Below are positions 3,893 to 21,416 of a stretch of 64,000 nucleotides of DNA, piece by piece; the stretch's first letter is position 1, and every line of letters begins with the position of its first letter. The translations under genes were made by a program, and so were the position numbers. This stretch comes from an uncultured Oscillospiraceae bacterium (lineage in GTDB: Bacteria; Bacillota; Clostridia; Peptostreptococcales; Anaerovoracaceae), in NCBI GenBank assembly GCA_964370075.1, contig CAYJHC010000001.1, positions 170 to 64,169 on the forward strand. The letters run 5' to 3'. The notes beneath the pieces were generated by a model. That model made no database searches. It was given only the letters and a program-made list of their open reading frames with translations, and was not told the DNA's origin.

Positions 3893-4681
3893 ATGAAAAC
3901 GAGAGTTATTTCAGGGTTAATAATGGTGCCTTTTCTAGGAATTTTACTTTTAGGAGACTATGTGCTGCTTGCTACCACTTTTTTGATTGGGATAGCAGCA
4001 GTATATGAGTTTTATAAAGGATTTCATTCCTTACATATAAAACCTTGTTACCCGATAGCTGTTTGTGTGGCTTTGTTACTATATGGGATTAACATTTTTC
4101 AGCTACCTCAAATTTATTATTTCATGGTGATCATGGTGGCTTTTTTTGCTTCAGTCCTGTACCTATTTAACATTGAAAATCGAAAAATTGAAGACGGAAT
4201 GGTTACTCTTTTTGGAATTATCTACATAATTGGTTGCTCTTTTCAGGTGGCGTTAGTAGAGCAGCAGATACATAACTTTGTTTGGCTAATTATTTGGACG
4301 GCCTTTGGCACTGATGTATTTGCATATTTCTCAGGCTTTCTTTTTGGCAAACATAAGTTATGTCCGAAGATAAGCCCTAAAAAAACAATAGAAGGTTCAA
4401 TAGGAGGAACATTAGGAAGCATTTTTCTTTGTGGAATATTTGGATATTTTGTAATGCCAGAATACTTAATACACTGCTTAATTATTGGTGCTCTTGGGGG
4501 AATAACTTCTCAACTAGGAGACCTTACCGCATCTATATTTAAAAGAAAAATGGGTATTAAAGATTATGGACATTTAATTCCAGGACATGGTGGGATTTTA
4601 GATAGGTTTGATAGCGTACTATTTACTGCACCTTTAGTGTTTGCTTATATAGTTGTTGTAATAAATGGAGGCTCGATTTAA
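3893..4681 (+). CDS. cdsA: Phosphatidate cytidylyltransferase
   Basis: Polytopic membrane protein with the CTP-transferase signature SxxKRxxGxKDxGxLIPGHGGILDRxDS. Confidence 0.92.
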   Translation: MKTRVISGLIMVPFLGILLLGDYVLLATTFLIGIAAVYEFYKGFHSLHIKPCYPIAVCVALLLYGINIFQLPQIYYFMVIMVAFFASVLYLFNIENRKIEDGMVTLFGIIYIIGCSFQVALVEQQIHNFVWLIIWTAFGTDVFAYFSGFLFGKHKLCPKISPKKTIEGSIGGTLGSIFLCGIFGYFVMPEYLIHCLIIGALGGITSQLGDLTASIFKRKMGIKDYGHLIPGHGGILDRFDSVLFTAPLVFAYIVVVINGGSI

Positions 4682-4685
4682 TAAT

Positions 4686-5837
4686 ATGAAGGAATTTGTC
4701 ATACTGGGAAGTACTGGCTCAATAGGAACACAATGTTTAGAAATTATAGAAAAGAACCAAGCTGATTATAGGGCTTCGGTTCTTTCTTGCGATAAGAGAA
4801 TAGATGATTTGATTTTACAGATTAAAAAATTCTCACCAGATGCGGTAGTAGTGTCAAGGGAAGAAGATGGAAAAAATCTTCAATCTATGTTTAGAGATCT
4901 TAAAGTTTTAGTTGGTGATGAAGGGTTGATTGAGGTTTCCAAGAAGTCCTGCCATATGGTCATTAATGCCTTAGTTGGGATTAGAGGACTACGTCCAACA
5001 TGGGCAGCAATAAATGCAGGAAATCACATTGGCCTAGCTAACAAAGAGACACTAGTTGCAGGTGGGGCCTTGATTATGGACAAAGCAAAGGAGATGAATG
5101 TAAATATTCTTCCTATTGATAGTGAACATAGCGCTATTTTTCAATGCTTAAATGGCGAAAACAAGAGGAAAATTGAGAAAATAATACTAACTGCATCAGG
5201 AGGTCCTTTTAGGGGGAAAAATAAAAAAATTCTCGAATCTGTAACTTTAGAGGATGCGTTAAAACACCCAAAATGGGAAATGGGGGCTAAGATTACTATT
5301 GATTCTTCAACCCTTATGAATAAAGGTCTTGAGGTTATAGAAGCTAGATGGCTTTTTGATGTTCCTATGGATAAAATATCAGTAGTTGTTCATCCACAAA
5401 GCATTATTCACTCTATGGTGGAGTTTGTAGATGGATCCGTAATGGCCCAACTTGGTAATCCAGACATGAAAATTCCAATTTCATATGTGATGGAATATCC
5501 AGAAAGATTACCTATGAAGGGAAATAGACTTTCTCTTACTGATGAAAGAACATTAACCTTTGAAGAACCTGATATGGATACCTTTTCTTGCCTTGAACTG
5601 GCATTTACTGCTGGAAAAAAAGGCGGGGCATACCCTATAATTCTTAACGGAGCAAATGAAGCCTTGGTTGACCTTTTTCTTAACAAAAAAATTGAATACT
5701 TAGAAATTCAAGAAACTTTAGAAAAAGTAATGGCTGAATGTGAATACAAAAGTCCATCATCTATAGAGGAGATAATAGAATTAGATAAGATAATTAAGAA
5801 AAAAATATATACTCAATTTGAGGATAGGAGAAATTAA
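4686..5837 (+). CDS. dxr: 1-deoxy-D-xylulose 5-phosphate reductoisomerase
   Basis: ATG 4686 gives MKEFVILGSTGSIGTQ (NADPH-binding GSTGSIG). LANKE, DSEHSA and NKGLE motifs are present. The track ORF start at 4665 overlaps cdsA and is less likely. Confidence 0.94.
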   Translation: MKEFVILGSTGSIGTQCLEIIEKNQADYRASVLSCDKRIDDLILQIKKFSPDAVVVSREEDGKNLQSMFRDLKVLVGDEGLIEVSKKSCHMVINALVGIRGLRPTWAAINAGNHIGLANKETLVAGGALIMDKAKEMNVNILPIDSEHSAIFQCLNGENKRKIEKIILTASGGPFRGKNKKILESVTLEDALKHPKWEMGAKITIDSSTLMNKGLEVIEARWLFDVPMDKISVVVHPQSIIHSMVEFVDGSVMAQLGNPDMKIPISYVMEYPERLPMKGNRLSLTDERTLTFEEPDMDTFSCLELAFTAGKKGGAYPIILNGANEALVDLFLNKKIEYLEIQETLEKVMAECEYKSPSSIEEIIELDKIIKKKIYTQFEDRRN

Positions 5838-6841
5838 TGACAACAATTATAGTATTAATACTTATGTTTAGTGTTCTAATAGGAATACATGAATTTGGAC
5901 ATTTAATAGCAGCAAAAAAATCAGGCGTTAAGGTTAACGAATTTGCTTTAGGAATGGGTCCTAAAATCTTTTCAAAGCAAAAAGGAGAAACCCTTTACTC
6001 TTTAAGAGCTTTTCCAATAGGAGGATTTTGCGCTATGGAAGGAGAGGATGATGAGTCTGATCACGAAAGAAGTTTTGGTAAGGCTAGTTACCCAAGAAAA
6101 ATAATAATAATAATTGCTGGTTCTATATGTAATTTTTTGTTAGCCATTATTATTATGATCGGTGTAGTCTTATATATAGGGACTCCTTCCACGGAGGTAG
6201 AGTCAGTAGTAGAAGATGGACCGGCAGCCGTTGCGGGAATAAAAGCAGGGGACATTATTCTTCAGGTTGATAACACAAATATAGAAGAATGGGAAGACTT
6301 AGGAGCTGCGATAGATGCGAATAATTCAGGAACTGTAGAAATAGTTTTAGATAGAGATGGAAAAGAAGTAACATACGAGACGAAAATTGTTGAAGAAGAT
6401 GGACGGAGTATTATAGGTGTTACCAGCAAATTAGAAAAAAACATATTAGCTGCAATTCCTGCAGGAATAGAAAGCACTTGGAATTTAGCGGTAAATATGG
6501 TAGACGTTTTGAAACAATTATTTACTGGGCAAGTAGGTATAGATCAATTGACAGGTCCTATTGGAATAGGGTTCGTAGTAAATGAGACATTGAATATTGG
6601 CCTGGTAAACTTTTTCTACTTAATGGCTATGATAAGTTTGAATCTTGGGATAATAAATTTGCTACCACTTCCAGCTCTTGATGGAGGTAGACTATTGTTT
6701 ATAATTATTAATATGATTACTGGAAAGGCAGTTTCAGATAAGGTGGAAGGAACTATTCACTTAATAGGCATGAGCTTATTATTGTTACTAGCCTTATACA
6801 TAGCTGGTCAAGACATTATCAGATTCGTATTACCAAGCTAA
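5837..6841 (+). CDS. rseP: RIP site-2 metalloprotease (M50) with PDZ domain
   Basis: HEFGH zinc motif in TM1, a central PDZ-like segment, and C-terminal NLLPLPALDGG. Confidence 0.9.
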   Translation: MTTIIVLILMFSVLIGIHEFGHLIAAKKSGVKVNEFALGMGPKIFSKQKGETLYSLRAFPIGGFCAMEGEDDESDHERSFGKASYPRKIIIIIAGSICNFLLAIIIMIGVVLYIGTPSTEVESVVEDGPAAVAGIKAGDIILQVDNTNIEEWEDLGAAIDANNSGTVEIVLDRDGKEVTYETKIVEEDGRSIIGVTSKLEKNILAAIPAGIESTWNLAVNMVDVLKQLFTGQVGIDQLTGPIGIGFVVNETLNIGLVNFFYLMAMISLNLGIINLLPLPALDGGRLLFIIINMITGKAVSDKVEGTIHLIGMSLLLLLALYIAGQDIIRFVLPS

Positions 6842-6879
6842 GTAAATAAGTAAAGGGGTTAGGAGTCGAAAGAAATATT

Positions 6880-7941
6880 ATGACAAAAGAAATTCTATGC
6901 AGAGATATAAAAATAGGTAATGGGAACCCAATTTCTATTCAATCAATGACCAACACAAAGACATCTAATGTCAAAGATACTTTGGAACAAATTAATCAAC
7001 TTAAGGAAGAGGGTTGCCAAATAATTAGAATGGCGATTAATACTATGGAAGCTGCTGAGGCTATTACAGAAATAAGAAAGAAAGTAGACTTACCATTAGT
7101 AGGGGATGTGCATTTTGACTATAAGTTAGCTTTGGCTGCGATAAAAAACGGAGTTGATAAAATTAGAATTAACCCTGGAAACATTGGAAGTGAAGAGAGG
7201 CTTATGGCAGTAGTGGAAGCTGCAAAGGAAAGAAATATTCCAATTAGAGTAGGGATAAATGGCGGCTCTTTAGAAAAAGATATTTTGGCTAAATATGGCC
7301 AGGTTTCTCCTGAAGCTTTAACTGAAAGTGCCCTTAGAAACATTGCGCTAATCGAAAAATATAATTATGACCAAATTGTAGTTTCGGTAAAATCTTCAAA
7401 TGTGACTACAAATTTTGAAGCCTATAAGTTGTTGTCGAATAGTACCGAGTACCCTCTACATATAGGGTTAACAGAGGCGGGGTATTCCACCTCAGGCATT
7501 ATTAAGTCTTCAGTAGCTTTAGGTGGTTTAATACTTGACGGAATAGGAGATACAATGAGAGTTTCCTTAACTGGAAATCCTGTTGAGGAAATAAAAATAG
7601 CCAAAGAAATTCTTTACGCAACAGGACAAAGAAAACCTTTAATTGAAGTGATTTCCTGCCCTACCTGTGGAAGAACCCATGGAGATTTAGAAAAATATGT
7701 AAAGTTAATGGACAAAGTGATTAAAGATAATACCTTGGAGAAGTTCGTAAAAGAGCCTATCAATATAGCCATAATGGGGTGTGAGGTTAATGGTCCAGGT
7801 GAAGCAAAGGAAGCTACGTATGGAGTGGCTTATGGTAAAGGGGTGGCTCTTATTTTTCGAAAAGGAAGATCTATTGCAAAAGTCGATGAGGAAGAAGGGA
7901 TTTTTACTTTAATTGACATAATAAAAAATTCGACACAATAG
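6880..7941 (+). CDS. ispG: 4-hydroxy-3-methylbut-2-enyl diphosphate synthase
   Basis: IQSMTNT, RINPGNIG and CPTCGR...GCxVNGPGE [4Fe-4S] motifs. Confidence 0.94.
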   Translation: MTKEILCRDIKIGNGNPISIQSMTNTKTSNVKDTLEQINQLKEEGCQIIRMAINTMEAAEAITEIRKKVDLPLVGDVHFDYKLALAAIKNGVDKIRINPGNIGSEERLMAVVEAAKERNIPIRVGINGGSLEKDILAKYGQVSPEALTESALRNIALIEKYNYDQIVVSVKSSNVTTNFEAYKLLSNSTEYPLHIGLTEAGYSTSGIIKSSVALGGLILDGIGDTMRVSLTGNPVEEIKIAKEILYATGQRKPLIEVISCPTCGRTHGDLEKYVKLMDKVIKDNTLEKFVKEPINIAIMGCEVNGPGEAKEATYGVAYGKGVALIFRKGRSIAKVDEEEGIFTLIDIIKNSTQ

Positions 7942-7966: not shown

Positions 7967-10900
7967 ATGAATGAAATATTCAATCAATACTTAAAGGATG
8001 GATATAAATATAAAATTGACAGGGCAGTAATCTCTAAAGACAGAAAAAGTCTTACTATAGAGATTACTCTTAATTTTATTCTAACTGAAAAAGAATTAAA
8101 CGAAATAAAGGGGAAAATAATAGAAAAATCTGGAGTAGAAAAAGTAATATTATCTTTAAATTGCGAAGACGTTGAAATGTGTTCCAAAGATATAGTAAGC
8201 AAAATGTTTCCTACTGTAATAACAAAATTACCCTTACATATTGAGGGTATGTTAAAGTCAGTAAAAAAAGAAGATTTGGTTATAGATGAAAACAAAGTAG
8301 TCGTTCATGTAATGGGAGAAAGTGTTGCAAACATGCTAAATTCTCAGGCAAAACATGAACTTAAAAAAGAATATAAAGACATAATTCAAATTGACCTTGA
8401 CTTTGATTTTGTACATCATGAGGAGAAGTTTGGAAATTTAAAAAGTTTAATTGATGAGAAAAACCCAGACCCGATTAGACAAAGTCAAAGTAAACCTGTT
8501 GCAAATAAGCCTGTAACAAAAGAAAAAAGTGAAAAAAAAGAAGGGTATGGAAGGAAAAGAAAGGCAAAAAGTTTTTTTACTGAAATTAGTTCTGCTAAAG
8601 CTGTCTTGCCAATTAAAGAAATTCACGAGCCACAAAAGGAGATCGTTATTGAAGGGACTCTTTTTAAGAAAAGCAGCTTTTTGACTAAAATAGGTTCACA
8701 TCTTCTTAGTCTATATATTACAGATGGGAACTCTTCTATAATGGCAAAGGCATTTTTGAAGGAAGAATTTTTTGATGAATTTAAAGAAAAAGTCAAAGAA
8801 GGAGATTCCCTTAAGTTAACAGGTGACATAGAGTGGGATAACTGGGATAGAACATATGTAATTATGGCTAAGGGTATTATGAAGACGGAAGGGAAATCTA
8901 GAGAAGATAATGCTTCGGTAAAAAGGGTTGAACTTCATGCTCACACTAAAATGAGTAGTCTGGATGGTTTAAATGATGTAGATACTTTAATAAGTACTGC
9001 CAAAAAATGGGGTCATGAGGCTATTGCAATCACAGATCATGGAGTGGTTCAAGCCTTTCCTGACGCATATCACTGTGCCAAAGGAATAAAGGTGATTTAT
9101 GGTTTAGAGGGATATCTTCTTGATGATAAAGATAGAATAATGGAAGATGGAACTATAGACTATAAAAAGCACCCAACTAACCATATTATAATTTTAGCAA
9201 AAAATGAAATTGGGATTAAAAATATATATAAACTAGTTTCGACTTCACATATAGATTATTTTTACAAAAAACCAAGAATACCTAAAAGTATTTTAACGAA
9301 ATATAGAGAAGGACTTATATTAGGAACTGCCTGTGAGGCAGGTGAACTTTATCAAGCTATTTTGAATAAAAAATCTGAAGAAGAAATAAAAGAAATTGCG
9401 GATTACTATGATTATTTAGAAATTCAACCTCTTACAAATAATTACTTTATGATTAGGAAAAACATTGTAGAATCTGAAGAAGAGTTAATTAGAATAAATA
9501 AAAAAATAGTTAGACTAGGTGAAGAGTTAGGGAAACCTGTAGTTGCCACATGTGACACCCATTATACTAATAAAGAAGATGGAAAATATAGGGATGTAAT
9601 TATGGCAGGTCAAGGTTATAAAGATGTTGAAGATAGTAGCGACTTATATTTAAGAACTACAGAAGAAATGCTAGAAGAATTTTCATATCTTGGAGAAGAC
9701 AAGGCATATGAAGTTGTTGTTACAAATACCAATTTTATTTCTCAGATGATAGAAAACGTTAGCCCTCTAAAAAAGGGTAAATTCCCTCCTAAAATAGAGG
9801 GGGATAAGGAAGAGCTTAGAGAGACTTGTGAGAGAACTGCTAAAGAGATTTATGGAGAGCCACTACCTGAGCTAATAAGTGAGAGATTAGAGAGAGAGCT
9901 TAACTCAATAATAAGTAACGGCTATGCAGTAATGTATATTTCGGCAAAGAAATTAGTAGACAAATCAATGGAAGATGGTTATCTAGTAGGGTCGAGAGGC
10001 TCAGTGGGCTCTTCTTTTGCAGCAACTATGTCTGGAATTACTGAAGTTAACCCTTTGCCACCACATTACATTTGCCCACAATGTAAATATTTAGAGTGGG
10101 GAGATGAGGAAAAATATGAGTGTGGTGTAGATCTTCCTCAAAAAAACTGTCCAGAATGTGGTGCTTTGCTAAAGCAAGATGGGTTTTCCATTAGGTTTGA
10201 AACCTTTTTAGGGTTTGAAGGAGATAAAGAACCAGATATTGACCTTAATTTTGCAGGAGAGTATCAGGCAAAAGCTCATAAATATGTTGAAGAAATTTTT
10301 GGCCCAGAGAATGTATATAAGGCAGGAACAATAGGGACAATAGCAGAAAAGACCGCTTTTGGTTTTGCCAAAAAATATTTTGAAGAAAGAGGAATCCAAG
10401 AAAATAAAGTAGAGCTTGAAAGGTTAACTTTAGGATGTCTAAAGGTAAAGAGGACTACAGGGCAACATCCAGGAGGTATAATTATTGTACCAAGAGGTAG
10501 AGAAATTTATGAGTTTTGCCCAATAAATTATCCTGCAAACAAATCAGAAGATAATATTATTACTACGCATTTTGATTATCACTCTATAGATAGTAACCTA
10601 CTAAAGCTTGATATACTAGGGCATGATGCGCCTTCTATGATCCGTTGGCTTGAACTTCTTACAGGAGTAGCCCCAGATCAGGTTCCTCTTTCTGATGAAA
10701 AAGTCGCTAGCCTTTTTCTAGGAACAGAAGGTTTAGATATTAAAATTAATAACTATAAATTTACTCATGGTAGTTATGGGATACCTGAATTCGGTACTAA
10801 ATTTGTAAGACAGATGTTAGATGATACTAAGCCCAAAAATCTTGGAGATTTAATTAGGATTTCAGGACTGTCTCATGGTACAGATGTATGGATAAATAAT

Positions 10901-11668
10901 GCGCAAGAATTTATAAAAGACGGGAAGGCTACAATTGATACTATTATTTCTACTAGAGATGATATTATGAATTATTTGATAATAAAGGGGTTGCCAAATA
11001 AACAGGCCTTTGATATTATGGAAAATGTTAGAAAAGGTAAAGGCTTAAAAGATCATGAGGAAGAATTAATGGTTGCTCATAATGTTCCTGATTGGTACAT
11101 AGAGTCGTGTAAGAGAATAAAGTATATGTTCCCGAGGGCCCATGCAGCAGCATATGTAGTAATGGCTTATAGAATTGCATATTTTAAAGTGTACTATCCT
11201 GCAGCTTTTTATGCTGTTTATTTAACTACTAAACTTGCAGACTTTAACTGGGAAGTGATTAAAAAGGGCATTAATGAAATTGAAGATAGAATAAATAATC
11301 TTTTAGTTAAGGGTAAGGGTATGACAAAAAAAGAGGAAGATGAGATTACTGTACTTGAAATTTGCTATGAAATGTATGCGAGAGGCTATGAATTCATGTA
11401 TCCTTCATTTCAGAATTCTTATGCGGAAAAGTTTGATGTGAGAGAGGGAAAAGTAGTTGTACCTCTTTGTGCCCTAGAGGGAATCGGTGAAAATGCAGGA
11501 AAAATTCTATTTGAAGAGAATAAAACAAAGCCATTTAGAACTGTAGATGATGTTAAAACAAGAGGCAAGGCGAATAAAGTTGCTATCGAGGCTATGAGGG
11601 AAAATGAAATGCTTAAAGGTTTGCCTGAAGCGGATCAGATTTCGTTTTTTGAATTAATGGGAGTATAA
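7967..11668 (+). CDS. polC: DNA polymerase III alpha subunit, PolC type, lacking the inserted DEDDh 3'-5' exonuclease domain (1233 aa)
   Basis: PolC N-domain and OB fold. PHP motifs VELHAHT, ITDHG, IYGLE, NHIIILAKN, GTACEAG, ATCDTHY. Zn module CPQC..CPEC. Palm motifs GSRGSVGSSF and PDIDLNF. The position after rseP-ispG is typical. Only 24 codons lie where the ~200-aa exonuclease normally sits. Confidence 0.9.
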   Translation: MNEIFNQYLKDGYKYKIDRAVISKDRKSLTIEITLNFILTEKELNEIKGKIIEKSGVEKVILSLNCEDVEMCSKDIVSKMFPTVITKLPLHIEGMLKSVKKEDLVIDENKVVVHVMGESVANMLNSQAKHELKKEYKDIIQIDLDFDFVHHEEKFGNLKSLIDEKNPDPIRQSQSKPVANKPVTKEKSEKKEGYGRKRKAKSFFTEISSAKAVLPIKEIHEPQKEIVIEGTLFKKSSFLTKIGSHLLSLYITDGNSSIMAKAFLKEEFFDEFKEKVKEGDSLKLTGDIEWDNWDRTYVIMAKGIMKTEGKSREDNASVKRVELHAHTKMSSLDGLNDVDTLISTAKKWGHEAIAITDHGVVQAFPDAYHCAKGIKVIYGLEGYLLDDKDRIMEDGTIDYKKHPTNHIIILAKNEIGIKNIYKLVSTSHIDYFYKKPRIPKSILTKYREGLILGTACEAGELYQAILNKKSEEEIKEIADYYDYLEIQPLTNNYFMIRKNIVESEEELIRINKKIVRLGEELGKPVVATCDTHYTNKEDGKYRDVIMAGQGYKDVEDSSDLYLRTTEEMLEEFSYLGEDKAYEVVVTNTNFISQMIENVSPLKKGKFPPKIEGDKEELRETCERTAKEIYGEPLPELISERLERELNSIISNGYAVMYISAKKLVDKSMEDGYLVGSRGSVGSSFAATMSGITEVNPLPPHYICPQCKYLEWGDEEKYECGVDLPQKNCPECGALLKQDGFSIRFETFLGFEGDKEPDIDLNFAGEYQAKAHKYVEEIFGPENVYKAGTIGTIAEKTAFGFAKKYFEERGIQENKVELERLTLGCLKVKRTTGQHPGGIIIVPRGREIYEFCPINYPANKSEDNIITTHFDYHSIDSNLLKLDILGHDAPSMIRWLELLTGVAPDQVPLSDEKVASLFLGTEGLDIKINNYKFTHGSYGIPEFGTKFVRQMLDDTKPKNLGDLIRISGLSHGTDVWINNAQEFIKDGKATIDTIISTRDDIMNYLIIKGLPNKQAFDIMENVRKGKGLKDHEEELMVAHNVPDWYIESCKRIKYMFPRAHAAAYVVMAYRIAYFKVYYPAAFYAVYLTTKLADFNWEVIKKGINEIEDRINNLLVKGKGMTKKEEDEITVLEICYEMYARGYEFMYPSFQNSYAEKFDVREGKVVVPLCALEGIGENAGKILFEENKTKPFRTVDDVKTRGKANKVAIEAMRENEMLKGLPEADQISFFELMGV

Positions 11669-11701
11669 CAGAAAGAATGTGTTGTAAGTAAGGAGGAAAA
11701 A

Positions 11702-12175
11702 ATGTTTAGAGAAGTAAGAAGAAGTGAAAGAGAACTTTCAAGAAAAGAATCAGAAGGAATATTAGAAAATGCGTCTTTTGGAACCCTAGCAGTAAATGGA
11801 GATGATGGATATCCTTATGCGATTCCAATAAGTTATGTATTTGTTGATGATAAAATATATTTTCACGGAGCAAACGCAGGCTATAAATATGAGGCATTAA
11901 AGAAGAATAACAAGGTAAGTTTTACTGCAGTAACTAAGGACAGTGTGGATCCTGCTGCATTTACTACAAAGTATGCAAGTGTAGTACTGTTTGGCAAAGT
12001 AAATATTTTAGAGGGCGGTGAAGAGTTTATTGAGGCAGGGATGAAGATTGCAAGAAAGTATTCTCCGGATCACTTAGAAGGTGCTATGAAATACATAAAC
12101 GCTTCTTCTGGTGGATTTGCGGTTTATGAAATTGAAATTGACCATATGTCAGGTAAGAGTAATGAAAAGAGATAA
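11702..12175 (+). CDS. Pyridoxamine 5'-phosphate oxidase-fold flavoprotein (NimA-like / Pyridox_ox_2 family)
   Basis: N-terminal MxRxxRRxERE..., GTLAV...GYPYxIPISYV and IYFHGA pattern typical of the nitroimidazole-reductase-like split-barrel family. Confidence 0.7.
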   Translation: MFREVRRSERELSRKESEGILENASFGTLAVNGDDGYPYAIPISYVFVDDKIYFHGANAGYKYEALKKNNKVSFTAVTKDSVDPAAFTTKYASVVLFGKVNILEGGEEFIEAGMKIARKYSPDHLEGAMKYINASSGGFAVYEIEIDHMSGKSNEKR

Positions 12176-12195
12176 AATATAACTGAAATTGATTT

Positions 12196-12232
12196 AAATA
12201 GCCAAGTTATCGATACGATTACTTGGCTATTT
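12196..12232. terminator. Bidirectional hairpin between convergent genes
   Basis: 12-bp perfect stem AAATAGCCAAGT / ACTTGGCTATTT with a 13-nt loop, flanked by T/A runs on both strands. Confidence 0.7.
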
Positions 12233-12281
12233 GTTTAAGATTAAAAGTTATAGGGCGAGTTTTTGCTAAAGCAATAAGGAA

Positions 12282-13583
12282 TTACTTATTAGTTAAGGAA
12301 GCTTTTAGTTTGTTTTTGTTCTTATACATTTCCTTGTCAACTTTTGAGAAAAAAGTTTCGAATTCTTGTTTAGTGATTCCTTCAAATCGACCATAACTCC
12401 ATGCAATTGAGAATTCGTATACGGCTCTTTCATTAAAATTCTTGATTTCTTCAGCCAATGTAGCTAGGTTAGAACTGATAAGTTCGTCTGTACAAGAAAC
12501 AGTATCTGTAAGAAGAGAAACAAATTCATCGCCACCTACTCTGTAGGTTTTACCATATGGTGAAAATAATTCGTTAATTCGTGCATAGGCAGTCTTTATT
12601 GCAAAATCTCCTTCGATATGTCCGTATTTATCATTAATCGTTTTTAGGTTGTTCATATCAAAAATAATGCACCAAAATGATTGGTTCTTATTCTTTTCAC
12701 TGTCACTAAAAAATTCATAAATGTCTTCGTGGTATGCATTTGAATTATAGCCACCCGTTAAGGTATCTTTAAAAGTATATTCAAGTAGGGTAGACTTCAT
12801 TTGATCAACTACTACTGCAATGTGTCCAACTTCATCTTTAGTAAAAAGATGCTCTGGAATTGGGCTTTTAAGGTTGCCTTTAGAAATGGAATTAACAGCA
12901 GCCTCAAGTTCTACTAGGTTTTTACTCATGCTTTTGGCAAATGAATTTAGGAAGGCCAGTAAAAATAGTCCTGCTACAATTATAGAAATTATTACTAGAG
13001 CTAATACCATATAAACAATTTCCTCGTTACGATACAATACTTCTTCCATTAAAGCTTTTTCTGCATTCAAAAATTTATCAATACTATCAAAGAATTGGTT
13101 GGCTATAGGGGTTACTCGAGTAAGAGCTTCTAAGGCTACATCAAAATCTCCGCCTTCAAGGTGTACATCAGCAGACTCTATCATACTTGCTTTATATTTG
13201 TCTTTTTCTATAATTATGCTACTAAACTCCGTAGCCTTCGCACCATCTAGTCTAACAAGAAAATTGTCCATTTGGGAATCCAAAGATTCGAATTCGGCAA
13301 GATAATCATCATATAATTCTCTACTTTTGTCTAAATCAGCCTCTAATAAAATATCTCTACCAAGAACCCTACAGGCATACATTGTCGTTACTATATTATT
13401 TAATAGTTCTGTATTTTTTACGTTTTCTGTAAAAACTTGCTGAGAAAGATTATTTACACTGCTTACTGATATTACAGAAATTAAACCTATGATAAGAATC
13501 ATAAATGTTGCAAAGATTCTTGTGGGGAAAAATTTCTTTTTAATTGGTGCATTTTCTAGCCAAGTCCTATATTTTGAGTTCAT
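12282..13583 (-). CDS. Membrane-bound diguanylate cyclase (periplasmic helical sensor + HAMP + GGDEF)
   Basis: Two TM segments flank a ~150-aa helical extracytoplasmic domain. A HAMP-like linker follows, then a C-terminal GGDEF domain with intact RVGGDEF. No RxxD I-site is seen just upstream of GGDEF. Confidence 0.85.
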   Translation of the reverse strand: MNSKYRTWLENAPIKKKFFPTRIFATFMILIIGLISVISVSSVNNLSQQVFTENVKNTELLNNIVTTMYACRVLGRDILLEADLDKSRELYDDYLAEFESLDSQMDNFLVRLDGAKATEFSSIIIEKDKYKASMIESADVHLEGGDFDVALEALTRVTPIANQFFDSIDKFLNAEKALMEEVLYRNEEIVYMVLALVIISIIVAGLFLLAFLNSFAKSMSKNLVELEAAVNSISKGNLKSPIPEHLFTKDEVGHIAVVVDQMKSTLLEYTFKDTLTGGYNSNAYHEDIYEFFSDSEKNKNQSFWCIIFDMNNLKTINDKYGHIEGDFAIKTAYARINELFSPYGKTYRVGGDEFVSLLTDTVSCTDELISSNLATLAEEIKNFNERAVYEFSIAWSYGRFEGITKQEFETFFSKVDKEMYKNKNKLKASLTNK

Positions 13584-13675
13584 TTTAATTCCTTTTTATA
13601 CTCTATAATTTCCTGAATAAGATTACTCTTTAGTATAACATAAAAGTATGAAAATAAGTAATTTTTATTGAATGA

Positions 13676-14785
13676 TTATTTCAAATTATCAGGATTTAGT
13701 GATAATAGTTGATCCACTACAAATATCCCATCTTTCCTTATTAAAACATCGTCAAACCAAATTTCACCACCGCCATACTCAGGTCTTTGAATCATTACTA
13801 AATCCCAGTGTATAGCAGATTTGTTTCCGTTAAAAGCGTCCTCGTATGAAGAACCAGGAGTTAGATGGAAACTTCCAGCGATTTTTTCGTCAAATAAGGT
13901 GTCTTTCATAGGGTTTAGAATAAATGGATTTACGCCAATAGCAAACTCACCAAAGTATCTAGCACTTTCATCAGTATCTAATAATTCGTTGATTCTAGCA
14001 GTATTGTTGGCTGTAGCATCAACAATCTTTCCATCTTTGATTTCAAACACTATATTTTCAAAAGTAAAACCTTGTTCCTCAGAAGGTGTGTTGTAAGAAA
14101 TAGTTCCATTCATTGAATTTCTTACAGGAGCAGTGTAGACTTCTCCGTCAGGGATGTTTCTTTCACCATCGCATTTGCGAGCAGGAATATCTTTTATTGA
14201 AAATGTTAAATCTGTCCCTGGTCCTTTTATCCTAACCTTATCTGTTTTATTCATTAGATCTACTAGAGAGTCCATTGCCAGACTCATTTTTTTATAGTCT
14301 AAGGTGCAAACATTAAAATAAAAATCTTCAAAGGCTTCTTGGCTAGTCCCTGCCATTTGAGCCATAGAAGGAGATGGGTATCTAAGTACTACCCACTTTG
14401 TTTTGTTGACCCTATAATCTAAGACAGGCCTAAGGCCTTTGCTATATAAATTTAGTTTCTCACTAGGAACATCTGCAAGCTCTGAAGAATTGGCGCCGCC
14501 CCTGATTGCAATATATGCATCCATTCCTTCCATTTGATTAAGCTGCCACTGATTCATTGAACTGATTTGATTTTCATCACAACCAAGGAGGAGTTCTCTA
14601 GTTATTTGAGAATCTCTTATTTCTACAAAAGGAACGCAGCCTAAGGCATAGACGTCTTTGATTAACTGTCTGATTAGAGGCTTGGTTTCATTTCCTTCGT
14701 AGCTAATTAGTACTTTTTCACCTTTTTTTAAAGCAACGGAATATTCCGTTAAAAGTTTAGATAATTTTAATATTCTGTTTTCCAT
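13676..14785 (-). CDS. ampS: Aminopeptidase, M29 (AmpS/PepS/aminopeptidase T) family
   Basis: The length (369 aa) and sequence pattern (LxKLxxLLxxYSVxxKKGEKVLI, EFAIGxNP, HxDLV) match thermophilic-metalloprotease M29 enzymes. Confidence 0.8.
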   Translation of the reverse strand: MENRILKLSKLLTEYSVALKKGEKVLISYEGNETKPLIRQLIKDVYALGCVPFVEIRDSQITRELLLGCDENQISSMNQWQLNQMEGMDAYIAIRGGANSSELADVPSEKLNLYSKGLRPVLDYRVNKTKWVVLRYPSPSMAQMAGTSQEAFEDFYFNVCTLDYKKMSLAMDSLVDLMNKTDKVRIKGPGTDLTFSIKDIPARKCDGERNIPDGEVYTAPVRNSMNGTISYNTPSEEQGFTFENIVFEIKDGKIVDATANNTARINELLDTDESARYFGEFAIGVNPFILNPMKDTLFDEKIAGSFHLTPGSSYEDAFNGNKSAIHWDLVMIQRPEYGGGEIWFDDVLIRKDGIFVVDQLLSLNPDNLK

Positions 14786-14824
14786 ATTTTTTTTTTTGAT
14801 TTAAATTAAAAATCAAAATCTTCC
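14786..14824 (-). promoter_or_regulatory. Unusual ampS translation-initiation region (A11 tract, hairpin between SD-like AAGGAAG and ATG)
   Basis: The minus strand reads AAGGAAGA-[TTTTGATTT-TTAATTT-AAATCAAAA]-AAAAAAAT-ATG. No SD lies within 30 nt of the ATG unless the 9-bp hairpin forms. Confidence 0.3.
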
Positions 14825-15228
14825 TTTCTTATATTATTTGATAAATTAGCAATTCTAACTTGTTAATTATACATTTTATAGGTGATAAAATAAAGGCGGT
14901 TGAATGAAATTTGCGAAAAATTTGTGAGAATAAAGAAATAATCGGATGTGATTTTGTAAATAAATAAAGGTGCGTAGAAATTCTGTATTCTAATTTTATT
15001 GAGAAGCAACTTAATAAATGGTAAAATATAGTTATACAATAAGAATAGAGATAAACTTAAAGAAAGTATTAAACTTAGAAGAAGTAAATAGTAGAGTATG
15101 ATTACTTAAGAAAAATCTGTAAAACAGGTCATGGACATAGAATTATATAAATGATTAGATGGAAAAGGAGAATTTAATAATACATAAATATTTAGTAATT
15201 TGAGGGTATAAGACAGGAGGGGAGATTT

Positions 15229-15891
15229 ATAAAAATTAATAATACCAGTTGGAAGCAACTTTTAGAAGTAGAAATAAAAAAACCGTATTTTTTAGAATTA
15301 AGTATATTTCTAGAGAAGGAGTATAAGAATAACAATGTGTTTCCTCCAATTGACCAGGTATTCAATGCGTTTGAAATGACTAGCTATGATAAGATAAATG
15401 TTGTTATTTTGGGACAAGATCCCTATCATAAGTTTGGACAAGCAAATGGATTAAGCTTTTCAGTTAACCCTGGGGTTAAAGTGCCTCCATCTCTTAATAA
15501 TATATATAAAGAAATGTGCCAGGACCTGAAGGTAAGTAAGCCTAAAAGTGGATGTCTTGATAAATGGGCAAGAAATGGAGTGTTTCTATTAAATGGAATT
15601 TTAACTGTGAGAGAAGGTGAGCCAAATTCCCATAAGGGCATAGGGTGGGAAAGGTTCACAGACAAAGTAATAGAGATGCTTAATGAAAGGGAAGCTCCAA
15701 TGGTATTTATTTTGTGGGGAGCTAAGGCAAAGGAGAAAGAGAAGCTTATTACAAATAAAAACCATTTAGTATTAAAGGGCGCGCACCCAAGTCCTTTATC
15801 TGCCAATAGTGGGTTTTTTGGAGGGAATTATTTTACAAATGCAAAAGTCTTTTTAGAGCAAAAGGGTAGAACAATAAATTGGGATTTGTAA
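15229..15891 (+). CDS. ung: Uracil-DNA glycosylase (family 1), apparently with a non-canonical AUA (or AUU 15235) start
   Basis: GQDPYH and HPSPLSA catalytic motifs. The conserved UNG N-terminus (SWKQLLEVEIKKPYFLEL..EY) is encoded upstream of the first canonical start (GTG 15337). AGGAGG at 15215-15220 lies 8 nt before ATA 15229. Confidence 0.85.
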   Translation: MKINNTSWKQLLEVEIKKPYFLELSIFLEKEYKNNNVFPPIDQVFNAFEMTSYDKINVVILGQDPYHKFGQANGLSFSVNPGVKVPPSLNNIYKEMCQDLKVSKPKSGCLDKWARNGVFLLNGILTVREGEPNSHKGIGWERFTDKVIEMLNEREAPMVFILWGAKAKEKEKLITNKNHLVLKGAHPSPLSANSGFFGGNYFTNAKVFLEQKGRTINWDL

Positions 15892-16031
15892 ATGTAAGTT
15901 AGAATATTTGGAATATTAAAATAGAGTACAATCAGCAAGAAGAACATGAATTTAGTGCAGTGGCTGATTATATAAGGCTATTACAATAATAAGAACAAAT
16001 TTGTTTGATTAGTAAAATTAGGAGGTTAATT

Positions 16032-16208
16032 ATGGGGAAGTCGCTTATTGGTAAAATGATTGCATATTGGATTTTTTTGCTTGGGGGAGTATTTGTAGTG
16101 AGAGTTATATTGCAAATTACTGCACCGGCTACATATATTGTATTTTTCGTGCTAATGACTATTATTTACTGGGCTTTCGCTTTATTTAATGATAAAAGAA
16201 GAGGTTAA
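16032..16208 (+). CDS. Small two-TM membrane protein, unknown function (58 aa)
   Basis: GGAGG at 16021-16025 lies 6 nt before ATG 16032. Two hydrophobic helices are present. The gene abuts the next ORF. Confidence 0.5.
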   Translation: MGKSLIGKMIAYWIFLLGGVFVVRVILQITAPATYIVFFVLMTIIYWAFALFNDKRRG

Positions 16209-16209
16209 A

Positions 16210-16524
16210 ATGAAAGAGAAAGATTTAAATGAAAAAGAACTAATTGAAACAAAATTAGAAGATAATTCTGAGCACCATAAGTTTTTTAGCAATGTAAAGT
16301 GTAAGTGGTTTCCTTGTCATAATGTGAAATGGAAAGATGACTTTAATTGTTTATTCTGTTTTTGTCCTCTTTATGCACTGGGGGAAGGCTGTGGAGGCAA
16401 TCCTAAGTTTTTAGATAATGGGGTTAAAGATTGTAGTCAATGCTTATTACCGCATAAAAGAAGTGGGTATGATTTTATTATGAATAAGTTTGACGAGATT
16501 TCAGAACTTGCAAAGAAAAAATAA
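16210..16524 (+). CDS. Cysteine-rich small domain protein (putative metal-binding, uncharacterised)
   Basis: CKWFPCH...CLFCFCPLY...GCGG...CSQCLLPH pattern. ATG 16210 follows an AAGAGG SD. The track ORF starts 21 nt earlier. Confidence 0.6.
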   Translation: MKEKDLNEKELIETKLEDNSEHHKFFSNVKCKWFPCHNVKWKDDFNCLFCFCPLYALGEGCGGNPKFLDNGVKDCSQCLLPHKRSGYDFIMNKFDEISELAKKK

Positions 16525-16614
16525 AAAGCAACAATTTTAAAATAAGCATAACAAAAGTTTAAAGAAAGGAGAGTATTGATATATTTCGTGATAAATATAT
16601 CGTACAAGGAATAT

Positions 16615-19600
16615 ATGGCGTTTACTCACCTACATCTTCATTCAGAATATAGTTTGCTAGATGGAGCTGCAAGGATAAAAGATGTAGTTTCAAGAGCAAA
16701 AGAACTAGGAATGACAGCTATTGGAATTACCGATCATGGAAATATGTTTGGGGTAATAAATTTTTATCAGGAGTGCAGAACCCAAAAAATCAAACCGATT
16801 TTAGGCTGTGAAGTATATACCGCAAGACGGGATAGGTTTTCAAAGGACGCTGCAAGAGATGGCACTCAGGGCCATTTAGTTTTGCTTGCCTATAACAATA
16901 TAGGCTATAAAAATCTAATGAAAATAGTTTCCGCTGGATTCTTAGAAGGGTTTTACTATAAACCTAGGGTTGACAAAGAACTTTTGAGAGAAAATAGTGA
17001 AGGAATAATAGCACTTTCAGCCTGCCTTGCTGGAGATATTACCTCTAAATTGCTTTATGGGGACTATGCAGGAGCAAAAAAAGAAGCAATAGAGTTGATT
17101 GAAATTTTTGGAAAAGAAAACTTTTTTATTGAGATTCAAGATCATGGATTAGAGGAACAGGCCCTTACAAATCCAGAGCTAATAAAGCTTAGTAAAGAAT
17201 TAGGCGTAGGATTAGTTGCTACTAATGATGTGCATTATGTAAAAAAAGAAGATGCAGAGGCACAAGATCTTTTATTATGCATTCAAACTGCAAAGACTAT
17301 AGATGATGCGGATCGGATGAGATTTCCAAATGATGAGTTTTATCTCAAGTCTGAAGATGAAATGAGAAAATTGTTTATAAATATTCCAGAAGCTTGTGAT
17401 AACACAGCTTTAATTGCGGACAGGTGCAATGTGGAAATTGATTTTAAATCTCTCCACCTACCAGACTTTCAAAGCCCTGAAGGTTATAGTAATAATGAAT
17501 ATTTAAGAAAACTTTGTGGCCAAGGACTAAGTGAAAGATACTTTTTAAATCAGCAGGTTTCTGATGAAAGAAAAGACTTTTTAGAAGAAAGACTAGAAAT
17601 GGAACTTTCTGTAATTGAAAAGATGGGATATGTAGAGTACTTTCTAGTTGTATGGGATTTTATAGATTATGCAAAGAAAAATGGAATAATGGTAGGAACT
17701 GGCAGAGGCTCAGCTGCGGGGAGTATTGTATCTTATGTGCTGAAAATTACCGATATTGACCCTATAGAGTATAACCTGATATTTGAAAGATTTTTAAATC
17801 CTGAAAGAGTAAGCATGCCAGATATAGATATAGATTTTTGTATCGAAAGAAGGCAAGAGGTAATCGATTATGTAAAAGGCAAATATGGCGAGGATAAGGT
17901 CGCTTTGATAATTACTTTTGGTACACTAGCTGCAAGAGCTGGAATTAGGGATGTTGGTCGCGCATTAAATATTAGCTATGCTGAAGTTGATGCTGTAGCG
18001 AAGGCAGTTCCAGAGGCTCCTGGTATGACAATAGGTAAAGCTCTGGCAATGAGCCCTGACCTTAAGAAAAAATATGATTATGAAGAGAATGCTAGAAAGA
18101 TGATTGATCTTGCACTAGCCCTTGAAGGGATCCCCAAAAACTCTTCAACACATGCAGCTGGAGTAGTAATTTCCAAAGAGCCAATAAGTGAATATGTTCC
18201 TCTCTATAATGGTGGAAAGGGCACAGCAACACAATTTACTATGAGTACAATTGAAGAGTTAGGCCTTCTTAAAATGGACTTTTTAGGCCTTAGAAACCTA
18301 ACTATAATTAGAAATACAATTGAGTTAGTTGAAAAATCACAAGGAAAAAAAATTGACTTAGAGAATCTTGAACTAAATGATTCAGAAACATATAAGACTA
18401 TTTCTGATGGAAACACACAAGGGATATTCCAACTAGAAAGTCAGGGGATGACTCAATTTATGAAAAATCTAAAGCCTAATTGTATTGAAGATATAATAGC
18501 AGGGATTTCTCTTTATCGGCCCGGTCCTATGGACTATATTCCTTCCTACATTGAGAATAAAAAAAATCCAGAAGGAATAAGATACTTGCACGAAAGCCTT
18601 AAACCTATTTTAGAGGTTACCTATGGATGTATAGTTTACCAGGAACAGGTTATGCAGATAGTTCGAGAGCTAGCTGGATACTCTTATGGGCGCTCTGATT
18701 TAATGAGAAGAGCCATGGGAAAGAAAAAAATGGATGTAATGCTCAAAGAAAAAGAAAACTTTATTTTTGGACTTCCAGAAGAAGGAGTAGATGGTTGTGT
18801 TAAGCGAGGCGTTCCAAAGCATATAGCAGAAGAAATATTTAACAATATGGTTTCATTTGCTGAATACGCTTTTAATAAATCTCATGCTGCGGCATATGCA
18901 GTAATTGGGTACCAAACTGCATATTTAAAAACTCATTATCCGTGTGAATTTATGGCTGCATTAATGACTAGTGTAATGGGGAGACCTGAAAAAGTTGCTA
19001 TGTATATTAGAAATGCTAAAGAAATGGGGATTGAAGTTTTGCCTCCTGATGTAAATGAAAGTGAACTCGGATTTTCAGCAAAAAATGGAAAAATTCGATT
19101 TGGTCTTAAAGGTATAAAAGGCGTTGGAGAAAACAGTATTATCTCTATAATTGAAAAAAGGAATAAAGATGGTAGATCTAAGGACTTAGCTCAATTTATT
19201 AGTAATTTAGACACTAAGACTACTAATAAAAAAAGCCTTGAAAGCTTAATAAAAGCAGGAGCTTTAGATTCATTAAACCCAAATAGAGCTCAAAGTCTTG
19301 TAGTATACGAAAAATTATTAGAGTCTGCACAAAATGTAAATAAAAAGAATGTTGAAGGCCAGATTTCCATGTTTCAGTTAAACAGCGATGTTATGGAAGA
19401 TGTTTCAGCAAGCGTAAATATGCCCGATATTTCACCATTTACAGACCAGATTTTAGGGCTGATGGAAAAAGAAATGACAGGAATTTATATTACAGCACAT
19501 CCTTTAGACAAATATAAAGAAGAGATGAATAACTTGGCTACATTATATGCAGAAGATATAATGGATAACCTAGATGATGAAGAGACAGTAGAGAATGAGA

Positions 19601-20265
19601 TTTCTATAATTAACAATTCTTCTGAAGGAAAGCATAGGGATGGAGATAAAGCTGTAATTCTAGGAATAATTAATAAAGTGAAAACTATAATAACAAAGAA
19701 TAATAGAACTATGGCCTTTCTTGAAGTAGAGGATCTTACGGGAATTATGGAAGTAATTGTTTTTTATAGAACTTATGAACAATATCAAAGTCAAATTAAG
19801 GAAGACAGTGTGGTTATTATTACGGGAACGGTCAGCATGAAAGGTGATGAAGCTCCCAAAGTTCTTGCAAATGAAATTGGAGGTCTTGACGAGATAAGTC
19901 AAAGAAATTTAATAAAAGAAAACAAAGGTAAAGAGTACAACATTAAGGCAGATAAAAATGTAGGAAGGCATGACGAAAAATTCACTTCTAGAAAAAATAT
20001 TGAAAGATCTATTAATTTGGAAGGTGCGGTTGAACAGCAAGAGCCAATGCCTCTAGTTAAAATTAAAATAGATGATGAGAGAAACTTTGAAACTGTAAGG
20101 AATATTTTGCAGGAAAATAAAGGTGATGTACAGGTAATACTTTATTTACCTAATAAAAAAACTTTAATGGCTAACAAGGAAATGAATGTAAACCCAACAG
20201 AAGAATTTTTGCATAAATTGAGTAAGTTGCTAGGCCGAGAAAACATAAAAGTGGAAAATCTCTAA
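16615..20265 (+). CDS. dnaE: DNA polymerase III alpha subunit, DnaE type
   Basis: ATG 16615 gives MAFTHLHLHSEYSLLDGA. PHP motifs, palm motif PDIDIDF, fingers, HhH, OB and a C-terminal extension are present. The track ORF start at 16576 is probably too early. Confidence 0.94.
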   Translation: MAFTHLHLHSEYSLLDGAARIKDVVSRAKELGMTAIGITDHGNMFGVINFYQECRTQKIKPILGCEVYTARRDRFSKDAARDGTQGHLVLLAYNNIGYKNLMKIVSAGFLEGFYYKPRVDKELLRENSEGIIALSACLAGDITSKLLYGDYAGAKKEAIELIEIFGKENFFIEIQDHGLEEQALTNPELIKLSKELGVGLVATNDVHYVKKEDAEAQDLLLCIQTAKTIDDADRMRFPNDEFYLKSEDEMRKLFINIPEACDNTALIADRCNVEIDFKSLHLPDFQSPEGYSNNEYLRKLCGQGLSERYFLNQQVSDERKDFLEERLEMELSVIEKMGYVEYFLVVWDFIDYAKKNGIMVGTGRGSAAGSIVSYVLKITDIDPIEYNLIFERFLNPERVSMPDIDIDFCIERRQEVIDYVKGKYGEDKVALIITFGTLAARAGIRDVGRALNISYAEVDAVAKAVPEAPGMTIGKALAMSPDLKKKYDYEENARKMIDLALALEGIPKNSSTHAAGVVISKEPISEYVPLYNGGKGTATQFTMSTIEELGLLKMDFLGLRNLTIIRNTIELVEKSQGKKIDLENLELNDSETYKTISDGNTQGIFQLESQGMTQFMKNLKPNCIEDIIAGISLYRPGPMDYIPSYIENKKNPEGIRYLHESLKPILEVTYGCIVYQEQVMQIVRELAGYSYGRSDLMRRAMGKKKMDVMLKEKENFIFGLPEEGVDGCVKRGVPKHIAEEIFNNMVSFAEYAFNKSHAAAYAVIGYQTAYLKTHYPCEFMAALMTSVMGRPEKVAMYIRNAKEMGIEVLPPDVNESELGFSAKNGKIRFGLKGIKGVGENSIISIIEKRNKDGRSKDLAQFISNLDTKTTNKKSLESLIKAGALDSLNPNRAQSLVVYEKLLESAQNVNKKNVEGQISMFQLNSDVMEDVSASVNMPDISPFTDQILGLMEKEMTGIYITAHPLDKYKEEMNNLATLYAEDIMDNLDDEETVENEISIINNSSEGKHRDGDKAVILGIINKVKTIITKNNRTMAFLEVEDLTGIMEVIVFYRTYEQYQSQIKEDSVVIITGTVSMKGDEAPKVLANEIGGLDEISQRNLIKENKGKEYNIKADKNVGRHDEKFTSRKNIERSINLEGAVEQQEPMPLVKIKIDDERNFETVRNILQENKGDVQVILYLPNKKTLMANKEMNVNPTEEFLHKLSKLLGRENIKVENL

Positions 20266-20395
20266 ATAAGAGCGTCTTGCAAAAAAATGATTATAGAGAA
20301 TAGTAAAATGAAAAGGTTAACTCTAGGAAGAGTAAAGACAGAAACATTAAACTAAGTTAAGATGTGCAGAAGAGATTTGCAGAAAGGCGGTATAT

Positions 20396-21358
20396 ATGAA
20401 AAGAGTAGGGATTTTAACAAGTGGGGGAGATTCTCCGGGAATGAATGCTACGATTAGGGCCTTAGTGCGTGCAGGCGATTTTGAGGGCTTTGAGATGATT
20501 GGAATCAATCGAGGTTATGAAGGGTTAATTGATACTGACTTTGTTAAAATGGATCTAAGAGCAGTAGGAGGAATTCTCCATAGGGGAGGCACTATTTTAA
20601 AAACTTCAAGAAGTGATAGGTTCAGAACCGAAGAAGGCCAGAAACAAGCTGTTGAAAATTTGCATAACTATCAAATAGATGCTCTAGTAGTAATTGGTGG
20701 AGAGGGTTCAATGAAAGGTGCTTTAGAACTTTGCAAAAAAGGCATTACCTGCATTGTATTACCAGGGACGATTGATAATGATATGGGATACACAGATTAT
20801 ACAATAGGGTTTGATACTGCAGTTAACACTGTTTTGTCTGGGATTTCAAATATTAGAGATACTGCATCTTCCCATGGAAGAGCAACATTGGTAGAAGTTA
20901 TGGGCAGAAGGTGTGGTGACTTAGCCCTCTATGCAGGGCTTGCTGGTGGTGCTGACGCAATTTTAATTCCTGAAATACCAGTAGACCTAGATAGTATGTG
21001 TGAAAAGCTAAAAGAAGGGAAGGATAGGGGGAAAACTCATAGTTTTATAATTAAGGCAGAGGGTGTTACTGTTTCTAACGAAGAAATTGAAAAAGCCATA
21101 CTTGAAAAAGTGGGACAGAAGACTAATACTATTGTCCTTTCTTATTTGCAAAGAGGAGGTTCTCCAACAGCAGAAGACAGATTGAGAGGGAGTTTGATGG
21201 CGGTTAAAGCAATTAAGCTAATTGAAAAGGAACAGGGATCTTTGGCTGTGGGGATTTCTGGGAATCAAGTTATTTCTATGGATTTAGAAGAAGCTTCAAC
21301 GATTACAAAAGAAGCAGATTTAGAAAAGTTAGCAATAATGGATATGCTGTCAAAATAG
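20396..21358 (+). CDS. pfkA: ATP-dependent 6-phosphofructokinase
   Basis: GILTSGGDSPGMNA, IGGEGS, PGTIDND and MGR motifs. dnaE-pfkA adjacency is common in Firmicutes. Confidence 0.94.
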   Translation: MKRVGILTSGGDSPGMNATIRALVRAGDFEGFEMIGINRGYEGLIDTDFVKMDLRAVGGILHRGGTILKTSRSDRFRTEEGQKQAVENLHNYQIDALVVIGGEGSMKGALELCKKGITCIVLPGTIDNDMGYTDYTIGFDTAVNTVLSGISNIRDTASSHGRATLVEVMGRRCGDLALYAGLAGGADAILIPEIPVDLDSMCEKLKEGKDRGKTHSFIIKAEGVTVSNEEIEKAILEKVGQKTNTIVLSYLQRGGSPTAEDRLRGSLMAVKAIKLIEKEQGSLAVGISGNQVISMDLEEASTITKEADLEKLAIMDMLSK

Positions 21359-21381
21359 GAAATGTTAAAATCAGCGTACCC

Positions 21382-21406
21382 TTTGAAATATAGAATCTAT
21401 TTCAAA
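21382..21406. terminator. Weak AT-rich hairpin between convergent pfkA and dinB
   Basis: 9-bp stem TTTGAAATA / TATTTCAAA with a 7-nt loop. It has only one G-C pair, so strength is doubtful. Confidence 0.35.
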
Positions 21407-21416
21407 ACTTTAGGCT

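Follow-up and report, generated by a model that had tools for sequence, protein, structure and literature searches.

What proofreads the products of a replicative polymerase that has lost its proofreading domain? The textbook proofreader of the Firmicutes is the DEDDh exonuclease domain (Exo) of PolC, a polymerase that is also a validated target of antibiotics. The question is raised here by a polC gene on contig CAYJHC010000001.1 of an uncultured Oscillospiraceae bacterium (G+C content, 34%), located within the window of 64,000 nucleotides that was analysed as a whole; its product, a PolC-type DNA polymerase III alpha of 1233 amino acids (aa), carries no such domain. We consider it probable that the gene is a functional, orthologous polC, that the DEDDh domain was cleanly deleted from a loop beside the active site of the PHP domain, and that PHP does the proofreading.

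Architecture of the polC product

The open reading frame (ORF) is unbroken over all 1233 aa (Table 1), and its product scored well above the cut-offs of both PolC equivalog families, with 1481.9 bits for NF001688 (cut-off, 873) and 1347 bits for TIGR01405 (cut-off, 1043). Pfam matches covered the OB domain (residues 227-304), PHP (322-481), DNA_pol3_alpha (PF07733; 616-885), the finger domain (891-1031) and HHH_6 (1144-1217). The protein is thus made of an N-terminal region, OB, a contiguous PHP, the Pol3 core and a helix-hairpin-helix (HhH) region, an order that is of the PolC and not of the DnaE type in that OB lies N-terminal to PHP and is followed by the Pol3 core and HhH. The GSRGSVGSSF motif is present, together with the zinc module, the catalytic aspartates and the C-terminal clamp motif listed in Table 1; a clamp motif of the form Q-x-[SDTE]-[LFMI]-F occurs in the C-terminus of 91 of the 120 proteins in our homologue set (the best 120 among 5.8 billion proteins, drawn from NCBI, JGI, ENA and Logan assemblies). 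Upstream, the order dxr-rseP-ispG is common to related loci with the exonuclease (exo+) and without it, and the window gene is therefore the positional orthologue of the canonical polC. The preliminary description of this DNA, made from its letters alone, had called the ORF PolC from its CPQC/CPEC, GSRGSVGSSF and PDIDLNF motifs and its place after rseP-ispG, and had judged the frame continuous rather than that of a frameshifted pseudogene; all of these features were found, and both statements hold. Its mention of a split PHP does not, as PHP is contiguous here (a single Pfam match) because the Exo insert is absent.

Like the canonical PolCs of B. subtilis, S. aureus and G. kaustophilus, the window protein has OB before PHP, the zinc module, the catalytic aspartates and a C-terminal clamp motif; it is 48% identical to G. 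kaustophilus PolC (template-modelling score, TM, 0.84), but lacks the DEDDh domain of about 210 aa that is the hallmark of the canonical form. The closest Protein Data Bank entry by sequence was 3f2b, a G. kaustophilus PolC construct with Exo engineered out, which is colinear with the window protein over residues 215-1228. An AlphaFold2 model of residues 215-1233, with a mean predicted local distance difference test score (pLDDT) of 79.4, superposed on 3f2b with TM 0.84/0.85 across 1017 columns, whereas alignment to the full-length PolC 9qpc required some 190 additional gap columns. The engineered protein (3f2b/3f2c/3f2d) is thus the best match in both sequence and fold and has a short linker at the Exo site; it also demonstrates that removal of Exo leaves PolC able to fold and to bind DNA and deoxynucleoside triphosphates. 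Its linker is artificial, of the GSGSG type, whereas that of the window protein is a natural loop of 24 aa with invariant residues, conserved across its clade. From architecture and family assignment, there is very little doubt that the gene encodes a bona fide PolC devoid of a DEDDh domain.

The missing domain would have been expected between the PHP ligands E381 (codon at 9107-9109) and H406 (codon at 9182-9184), which are separated by 24 codons, GYLLDDKDRIMEDGTIDYKKHPTN, exactly as the preliminary description had counted. In the NF001688 alignment, residue 396 falls on profile position 606, so that about 200 profile positions are skipped. When the protein was aligned by MAFFT with 80 PolCs from species representatives of GTDB, the E-to-H spacing was 208-216 aa in exo+ proteins and 24 in the window PolC. 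No RNase_T/DnaQ (PF00929) match was obtained in the ORF, even at E<=1. We further built an Exo hidden Markov model (HMM) from 36 complete Exo inserts; as a positive control on the protein set, it recovered exactly the 36 complete exo+ PolCs (36/36), and in six-frame translations of the related loci a 37th exo+ polC, split by a frameshift (locus L056), came up as well. Applied to all six frames of the 64-kb window, it returned nothing (best E = 0.48), nor was there any profile match in the ORF or the window to the RNase_T fold that carries Exo I (DxE), Exo II and Exo III (HxxxD). The corresponding patterns DIETTG, HNAxFD and HRAxxDA, checked in five exo+ relatives, were all present in four of them, the fifth (L025) being without the Exo II pattern. 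Pfam searches of most of the larger window ORFs (>=150 aa) showed housekeeping genes only and no other candidate proofreading nuclease, and Rfam and tRNA scans of the window yielded nothing bearing on the Exo-less PolC. The Exo domain is gone, and no remnant of it is left in the window. The claim that the whole DEDDh domain is missing holds under the profile search proposed to check it.

What stands in its place is not a random joint. The E-to-H loop is exactly 24 aa long in 100 of the 120 closest homologues (range, 21-27 aa) and follows the pattern GY-l-DD-x-D...DG-x-I-x-YK-x-x-x-TNH, in which D387, I397, K400 and T404 are invariant among the 120. The pLDDT of the loop region is 83-92. By alignment, the stalk on either side of Exo in exo+ relatives is homologous to the two loop ends (GYLxDD... 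and ...IDYKKxxTNH), and this homology fits a clean internal deletion of the Exo domain.

Recurrence among relatives and repeated loss

Surveying relatives for the same architecture, as had been suggested, gave a consistent picture. None of the 120 best homologues (0/120; lengths, 1138-1326 aa) matched PF00929, and the window PolC was 66% identical to the nearest database protein and 53-57% identical to the others. A scan of GTDB species representatives gave at least 80 PolC loci, and the counts that follow apply among the matches listed: 43 of the 80 loci were Exo-less, with loops of 12-52 aa, and 37 were exo+, with inserts of 208-216 aa; the highest identity to the window PolC was 60%. Four Exo-less proteins from a Lachnospiraceae subgroup and Peptococcaceae (L030, L031, L057 and L040) have longer loops (33-52 aa) of low complexity, either acidic or rich in lysine, as against the compact loops of 12-24 aa, which suggests that separate loss events had different deletion end points or were followed by expansion of the loop.

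A neighbour-joining tree was computed from corrected p-distances over 884 shared core columns, with 100 bootstrap trees. The window PolC fell within a 13-member Exo-less clade (99% bootstrap) composed of Anaerovoracaceae, Mogibacterium, Lentihominibacter, Copromorpha and unnamed metagenome-assembled genomes (MAGs), the sister of which is an exo+ PolC (100%). The Lachnospiraceae PolCs formed a clade (100%) that holds both exo+ and Exo-less members, and the Exo-less protein of locus L011 paired with the Bacillota exo+ protein of L039 (100%). Fitch parsimony required 5-7 changes of exo state, in all 100 bootstrap trees. Among exo+ proteins, distances in Exo tracked those in the core (r = 0.81; Mantel p = 0.001), and therefore Exo was inherited vertically and the state changes are losses, not gains. 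By these comparisons, the DEDDh domain was lost at least five times independently.

Two other histories were considered and set aside. An Exo-less ancestor with repeated gains is unlikely, as the gains would have had to strike the same loop each time, and it is also disfavoured by the correlation between Exo and core distances. Splitting off of Exo into a neighbouring gene was likewise rejected: the Exo HMM found nothing outside polC in the approximately 10 kb around each of the 43 Exo-less loci, and in none of the loci listed was there a match outside polC, the lone match of under 1000 aa being the frameshifted exo+ polC of L056. The domain has therefore not been split off as a neighbouring gene.

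Two of these loci deserve a word of their own. In L056 (9215..13618; Anaerotignum sp. VLC_092 MAG), the exo+ polC is divided into two ORFs of 607 aa and 860 aa, by either a sequencing-error frameshift or stop or as a genuine pseudogene; it is the sole interrupted polC among the 80 loci. L011 (JBLNBO010000054.1) is labelled as "Ignavibacteriales bacterium" MAG149, and it carries a Firmicutes-type Exo-less polC in dxr-rseP-ispG synteny; it is probably a mis-binned contig or bears a wrong taxonomic label.

PolCs of this kind have been on record for some time. Timinskas, Balvociute, Timinskas and Venclovas (2014, NAR 42:1393) reported that 6% of PolCs are without the Exo insertion, all of them from Clostridia or Negativicutes bar one extra copy in Thermotogae, and all paired with DnaE1 (PMC3919608). 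According to Table 2 of that survey, 16% of PolC+DnaE1 systems are without an internal exonuclease, and for 9 + 1 + 1 + 1 genomes its Table S2 gives a single PolC, of the order NTD-OB-PHP-POL3-HHH2 (NTD, N-terminal domain), beside a typical DnaE1, exactly the polymerase pair of the window (PMC3919608). The likeness extends to an identical domain order without Exo insertion, the Clostridia-type PolC clade, the typical DnaE1 partner (PHP-Pol3-HhH2-OB followed by a C-terminal domain) and the retained PHP metal site; there is no difference in kind, the window PolC being a divergent member near Anaerovoracaceae, Mogibacterium and Lentihominibacter. The Exo-less architecture has thus been known since 2014, and the window adds no new category. 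The preliminary description, unsure whether polymerase surveys had noted exonuclease-less PolCs, can be amended on that point; its companion remark, that it knew of no functional characterisation, stands, as a full-text literature search found no biochemical characterisation or assay of an Exo-less PolC. What is added here is modest: the strict conservation of the PHP ligands and of the replacement loop, at least five independent losses, and the lack of a DnaQ gene nearby.

The PHP metal site and the source of proofreading

With Exo absent by nature, a large group of anaerobes must secure replication fidelity by other means, and the most likely substitute is the "ancestral" PHP exonuclease. 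In the window PolC, the PHP ligands are H324, H326, D333, H358, E381, H406, C456, D530 and H532 (HHDHEHCDH); all nine are unchanged throughout the homologue set (120/120) and throughout the complete PolCs among the genome-representative matches listed. In a 2026 survey by the Timinskas group, in which PHP and DnaQ proofreaders were mapped over more than 3000 species, the complete motif HHDHEH[C/H]DH served as the criterion for an "active" PHP (PMC12926913), and the window PolC carries this motif in full. G. kaustophilus PolC, by alignment, has N in place of D at the eighth ligand, where the window protein keeps D530; that enzyme, with one PHP ligand mutated, has no PHP exonuclease activity (PMC5636811). 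In C. thermocellum, the PolC substitution C669Y, at a PHP metal cysteine, makes the strain an approximately 30-fold mutator (bioRxiv 10.1101/2021.07.30.454558). Judging by motif position, C669 would be the equivalent of C456 in the window, and C669Y is the sole genetic evidence for a role of PHP in clostridial PolC fidelity.

Proofreading by a PHP exonuclease has been demonstrated in Thermus Pol III alpha and M. tuberculosis DnaE1, and PHP has been put forward as the ancestral proofreader (Rock et al. 2015, as cited in PMC5636811). These enzymes have the same nine-ligand trinuclear metal site as the window PolC, although the latter belongs to the PolC branch of the C family and has a different domain order. 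The loop adjacent to PHP measures 24 aa in the window PolC, 29 aa in M. tuberculosis DnaE1, 18 aa in the T. aquaticus (Taq) enzyme and 9 aa in that of E. coli; in M. tuberculosis DnaE1 it forms the lining of the groove through which the metal centre is reached. The 24-aa loop of the window PolC is the same loop as in DnaE1, restored to a DnaE1-like length.

We think it fairly probable that the PHP exonuclease proofreads PolC products. The trinuclear-metal site would then remove mispaired 3' ends in the 3'-5' direction, as it does in the Thermus and M. tuberculosis enzymes, and the conserved loop in place of Exo would probably line the PHP substrate groove by analogy with M. tuberculosis DnaE1. 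If PHP proofreads, the DEDDh module would be redundant beside an intact PHP and hence could be lost. The broader proposition, that in Firmicutes with PolC and DnaE1 the DEDDh domain is redundant wherever PHP is intact and was for this reason dropped at least five times, and that here PHP is the sole proofreader with the loop in its groove, has in our judgement an even chance of being right.

Several points weigh against PHP proofreading or against parts of the case for it. The exo+ clostridial PolCs examined have just as complete a set of PHP ligands, so that conservation of the site does not set Exo-less enzymes apart and may be due to a function in structure or as a pyrophosphatase. C. thermocellum PolC retains its Exo domain, and its mutator effect could come from structural destabilisation instead of lost PHP catalysis. 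PHP exonuclease activity has been published for no PolC. The trees behind the count of losses are neighbour-joining and not maximum-likelihood trees, and are unrooted apart from midpoint. Lastly, a stand-alone DnaQ or a second polC may lie elsewhere in the genome, the search having covered the 64-kb window.

The preliminary description had named three possible consequences of the missing domain, namely a DnaQ acting in trans, a PHP exonuclease and a mutator lineage; these are the right alternatives, and the evidence favours PHP. It is rather unlikely that PolC products go without proofreading by PolC itself, with DnaE1 carrying out the bulk of replication, or editing in trans while PolC has a reduced part, or with a raised mutation rate being tolerated. 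Such an arrangement is conceivable in the window, as a complete DnaE1 with 9/9 PHP ligands and the clamp motif QISMF is encoded 5 kb downstream; it is the very scenario brought up by Timinskas et al., who also point to Clostridia with DnaE1 alone (PMC3919608). Editing in trans is known in B. subtilis, where the PolC Exo complements DnaE3 (as cited in PMC12926913). The designation of PolC as an essential leading-strand replicase in the preliminary description is, in this respect, an extrapolation from Bacillus, the division of labour between PolC and DnaE1 not being established in PolC+DnaE1 organisms. Against a marginal or decaying enzyme, strong purifying selection acts on PolC (mean column identity, 62%), and the catalytic, zinc-module and clamp residues as well as the nine PHP ligands are invariant, which is hard to square with a marginal function. 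Exo-less PolCs moreover persist throughout entire families (Anaerovoracaceae-like, Negativicutes and part of Lachnospiraceae), and this argues against a short-lived mutator state.

We think it unlikely that a DnaQ/epsilon-like DEDDh exonuclease, encoded by a gene of its own, docks on PolC or DnaE1 and proofreads in trans, as in E. coli. Bacterial proteomes contain on average more than three stand-alone DnaQ homologues (PMC12926913), clostridial DnaE1s retain a conserved putative epsilon-binding patch (PMC3919608), and the genome beyond the 64-kb window could encode such a protein. The six-frame search described above, however, detected no DEDDh-like ORF in the window, and none was found around the 43 Exo-less polC loci. 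To our knowledge, no epsilon-binding site has been described for PolC. The 2026 survey, for its part, names PHP, and not separate DnaQs, as the clostridial proofreader besides the one embedded in PolC (PMC12926913).

It is very improbable that the locus is artefactual or not orthologous, be it through assembly collapse with loss of about 600 bp, as a pseudogene, or as an accessory paralogue to a canonical polC. The contig does come from a draft assembly and the evidence spans this one contig, but collapse and pseudogene are excluded because the same architecture and conserved 24-aa loop recur in many independent assemblies (100 of the 120 closest homologues, whose assemblies and sources are unrelated). 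The frame is continuous, the dxr-rseP-ispG-polC synteny is canonical, and the 2014 survey found the Exo-less form to be the sole PolC in 12 Clostridia/Negativicutes genomes (Table S2), its only extra-copy case being that of Thermotogae (PMC3919608).

If PHP does proofread here, natural Exo-less PolCs would be the first PolC enzymes shown to do so through PHP, and would amount to a natural experiment on the coexistence of two proofreaders in most clostridial PolCs. Their recurrent clean loss of Exo, combined with a conserved PHP site and loop, makes them convenient subjects for studying PHP proofreading in the PolC branch, and they could help to define the division of labour in PolC+DnaE1 replisomes.

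The partner DnaE1 and other genes of the window

The polymerase encoded downstream of polC, which the preliminary description had passed over, was assigned to DnaE1, whereas canonical PolC is partnered by DnaE3. It scored 1692 bits against the clostridial DnaE equivalog NF005298 (cut-off, 1260) and 1385 bits against the general family NF004226, has the full PHP-Pol3-HhH-OB form by Pfam as well as an internal clamp motif, and matches T. aquaticus DnaE at each of the nine PHP metal ligands. From the equivalog matches, the architecture, the clamp motif and the intact PHP, it follows that the organism has a PolC+DnaE1 replication system. The mechanical ORF call starts at a TTG (16576), but homology to Taq DnaE begins at M14 (ATG 16615), and the protein on the database record is the 1216-aa product of this later start; the real dnaE start is therefore most likely 16615.

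Table 1. Coordinates of the features discussed, in window positions
Feature	Position	Strand	Basis
polC, PolC-type DNA polymerase III alpha, natural Exo-less form, 1233 aa	7967..11668	+	NCBIfam, Pfam, PDB match, AlphaFold2 model
PHP domain with complete nine-residue trinuclear metal site	8930..9565	+	ligands located in translation and alignments
PHP ligand E381, 24-aa loop, PHP ligand H406	9107..9184	+	translation, alignments; site of the ~210-aa DEDDh exonuclease in other PolCs
PolC-specific four-cysteine zinc module, C703-P-Q-C706 ... C728-P-E-C731	10073..10159	+	translation; 4/4 cysteines invariant in homologue alignment
Polymerase catalytic motif PDIDLNF (D757, D759)	10232..10252	+	translation; invariant in homologue alignment; inside PF07733 match 616-885
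C-terminal beta-clamp-binding motif QISFF, residues 1224-1228	11636..11650	+	QL[SD]LF-like pentapeptide
dxr, rseP, ispG, conserved neighbours upstream of polC	4665..7941	+	Pfam assignments
dnaE, DnaE1-type Pol III alpha, 1216 aa from ATG 16615	16615..20265	+	NCBIfam, Pfam, PHP ligands, clamp motif
Uracil-DNA-glycosylase-superfamily gene, directly upstream of dnaE1	15337..15891	+	
Y-family DinB/IMS-type polymerase, beyond dnaE1 and then pfkA	21417..22742	-	
Multidomain redox protein, 1168 aa	59548..63054		

Three DNA polymerase genes and a uracil-DNA-glycosylase-family gene are thus gathered inside 15 kb (7967..22742). In the related locus L048, dnaE-pfk likewise lies close behind polC.

Two further observations were made in the remainder of the window. 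A tRNA-Leu(CAA) gene (31256..31342) overlaps the 5' end of a mechanical ORF with a GTG start (31299..31808); since the YajC domain starts only at residue 33 of this ORF, the true yajC start lies downstream of the tRNA. Near the end of the window, the redox protein listed in Table 1 combines an N-terminal 2Fe-2S module, a GltD-like Fer4_20 and pyridine-nucleotide-disulphide oxidoreductase portion, 4Fe-4S clusters and a molybdopterin oxidoreductase of the formate-dehydrogenase-like kind, a combination that is unusual in a single polypeptide.

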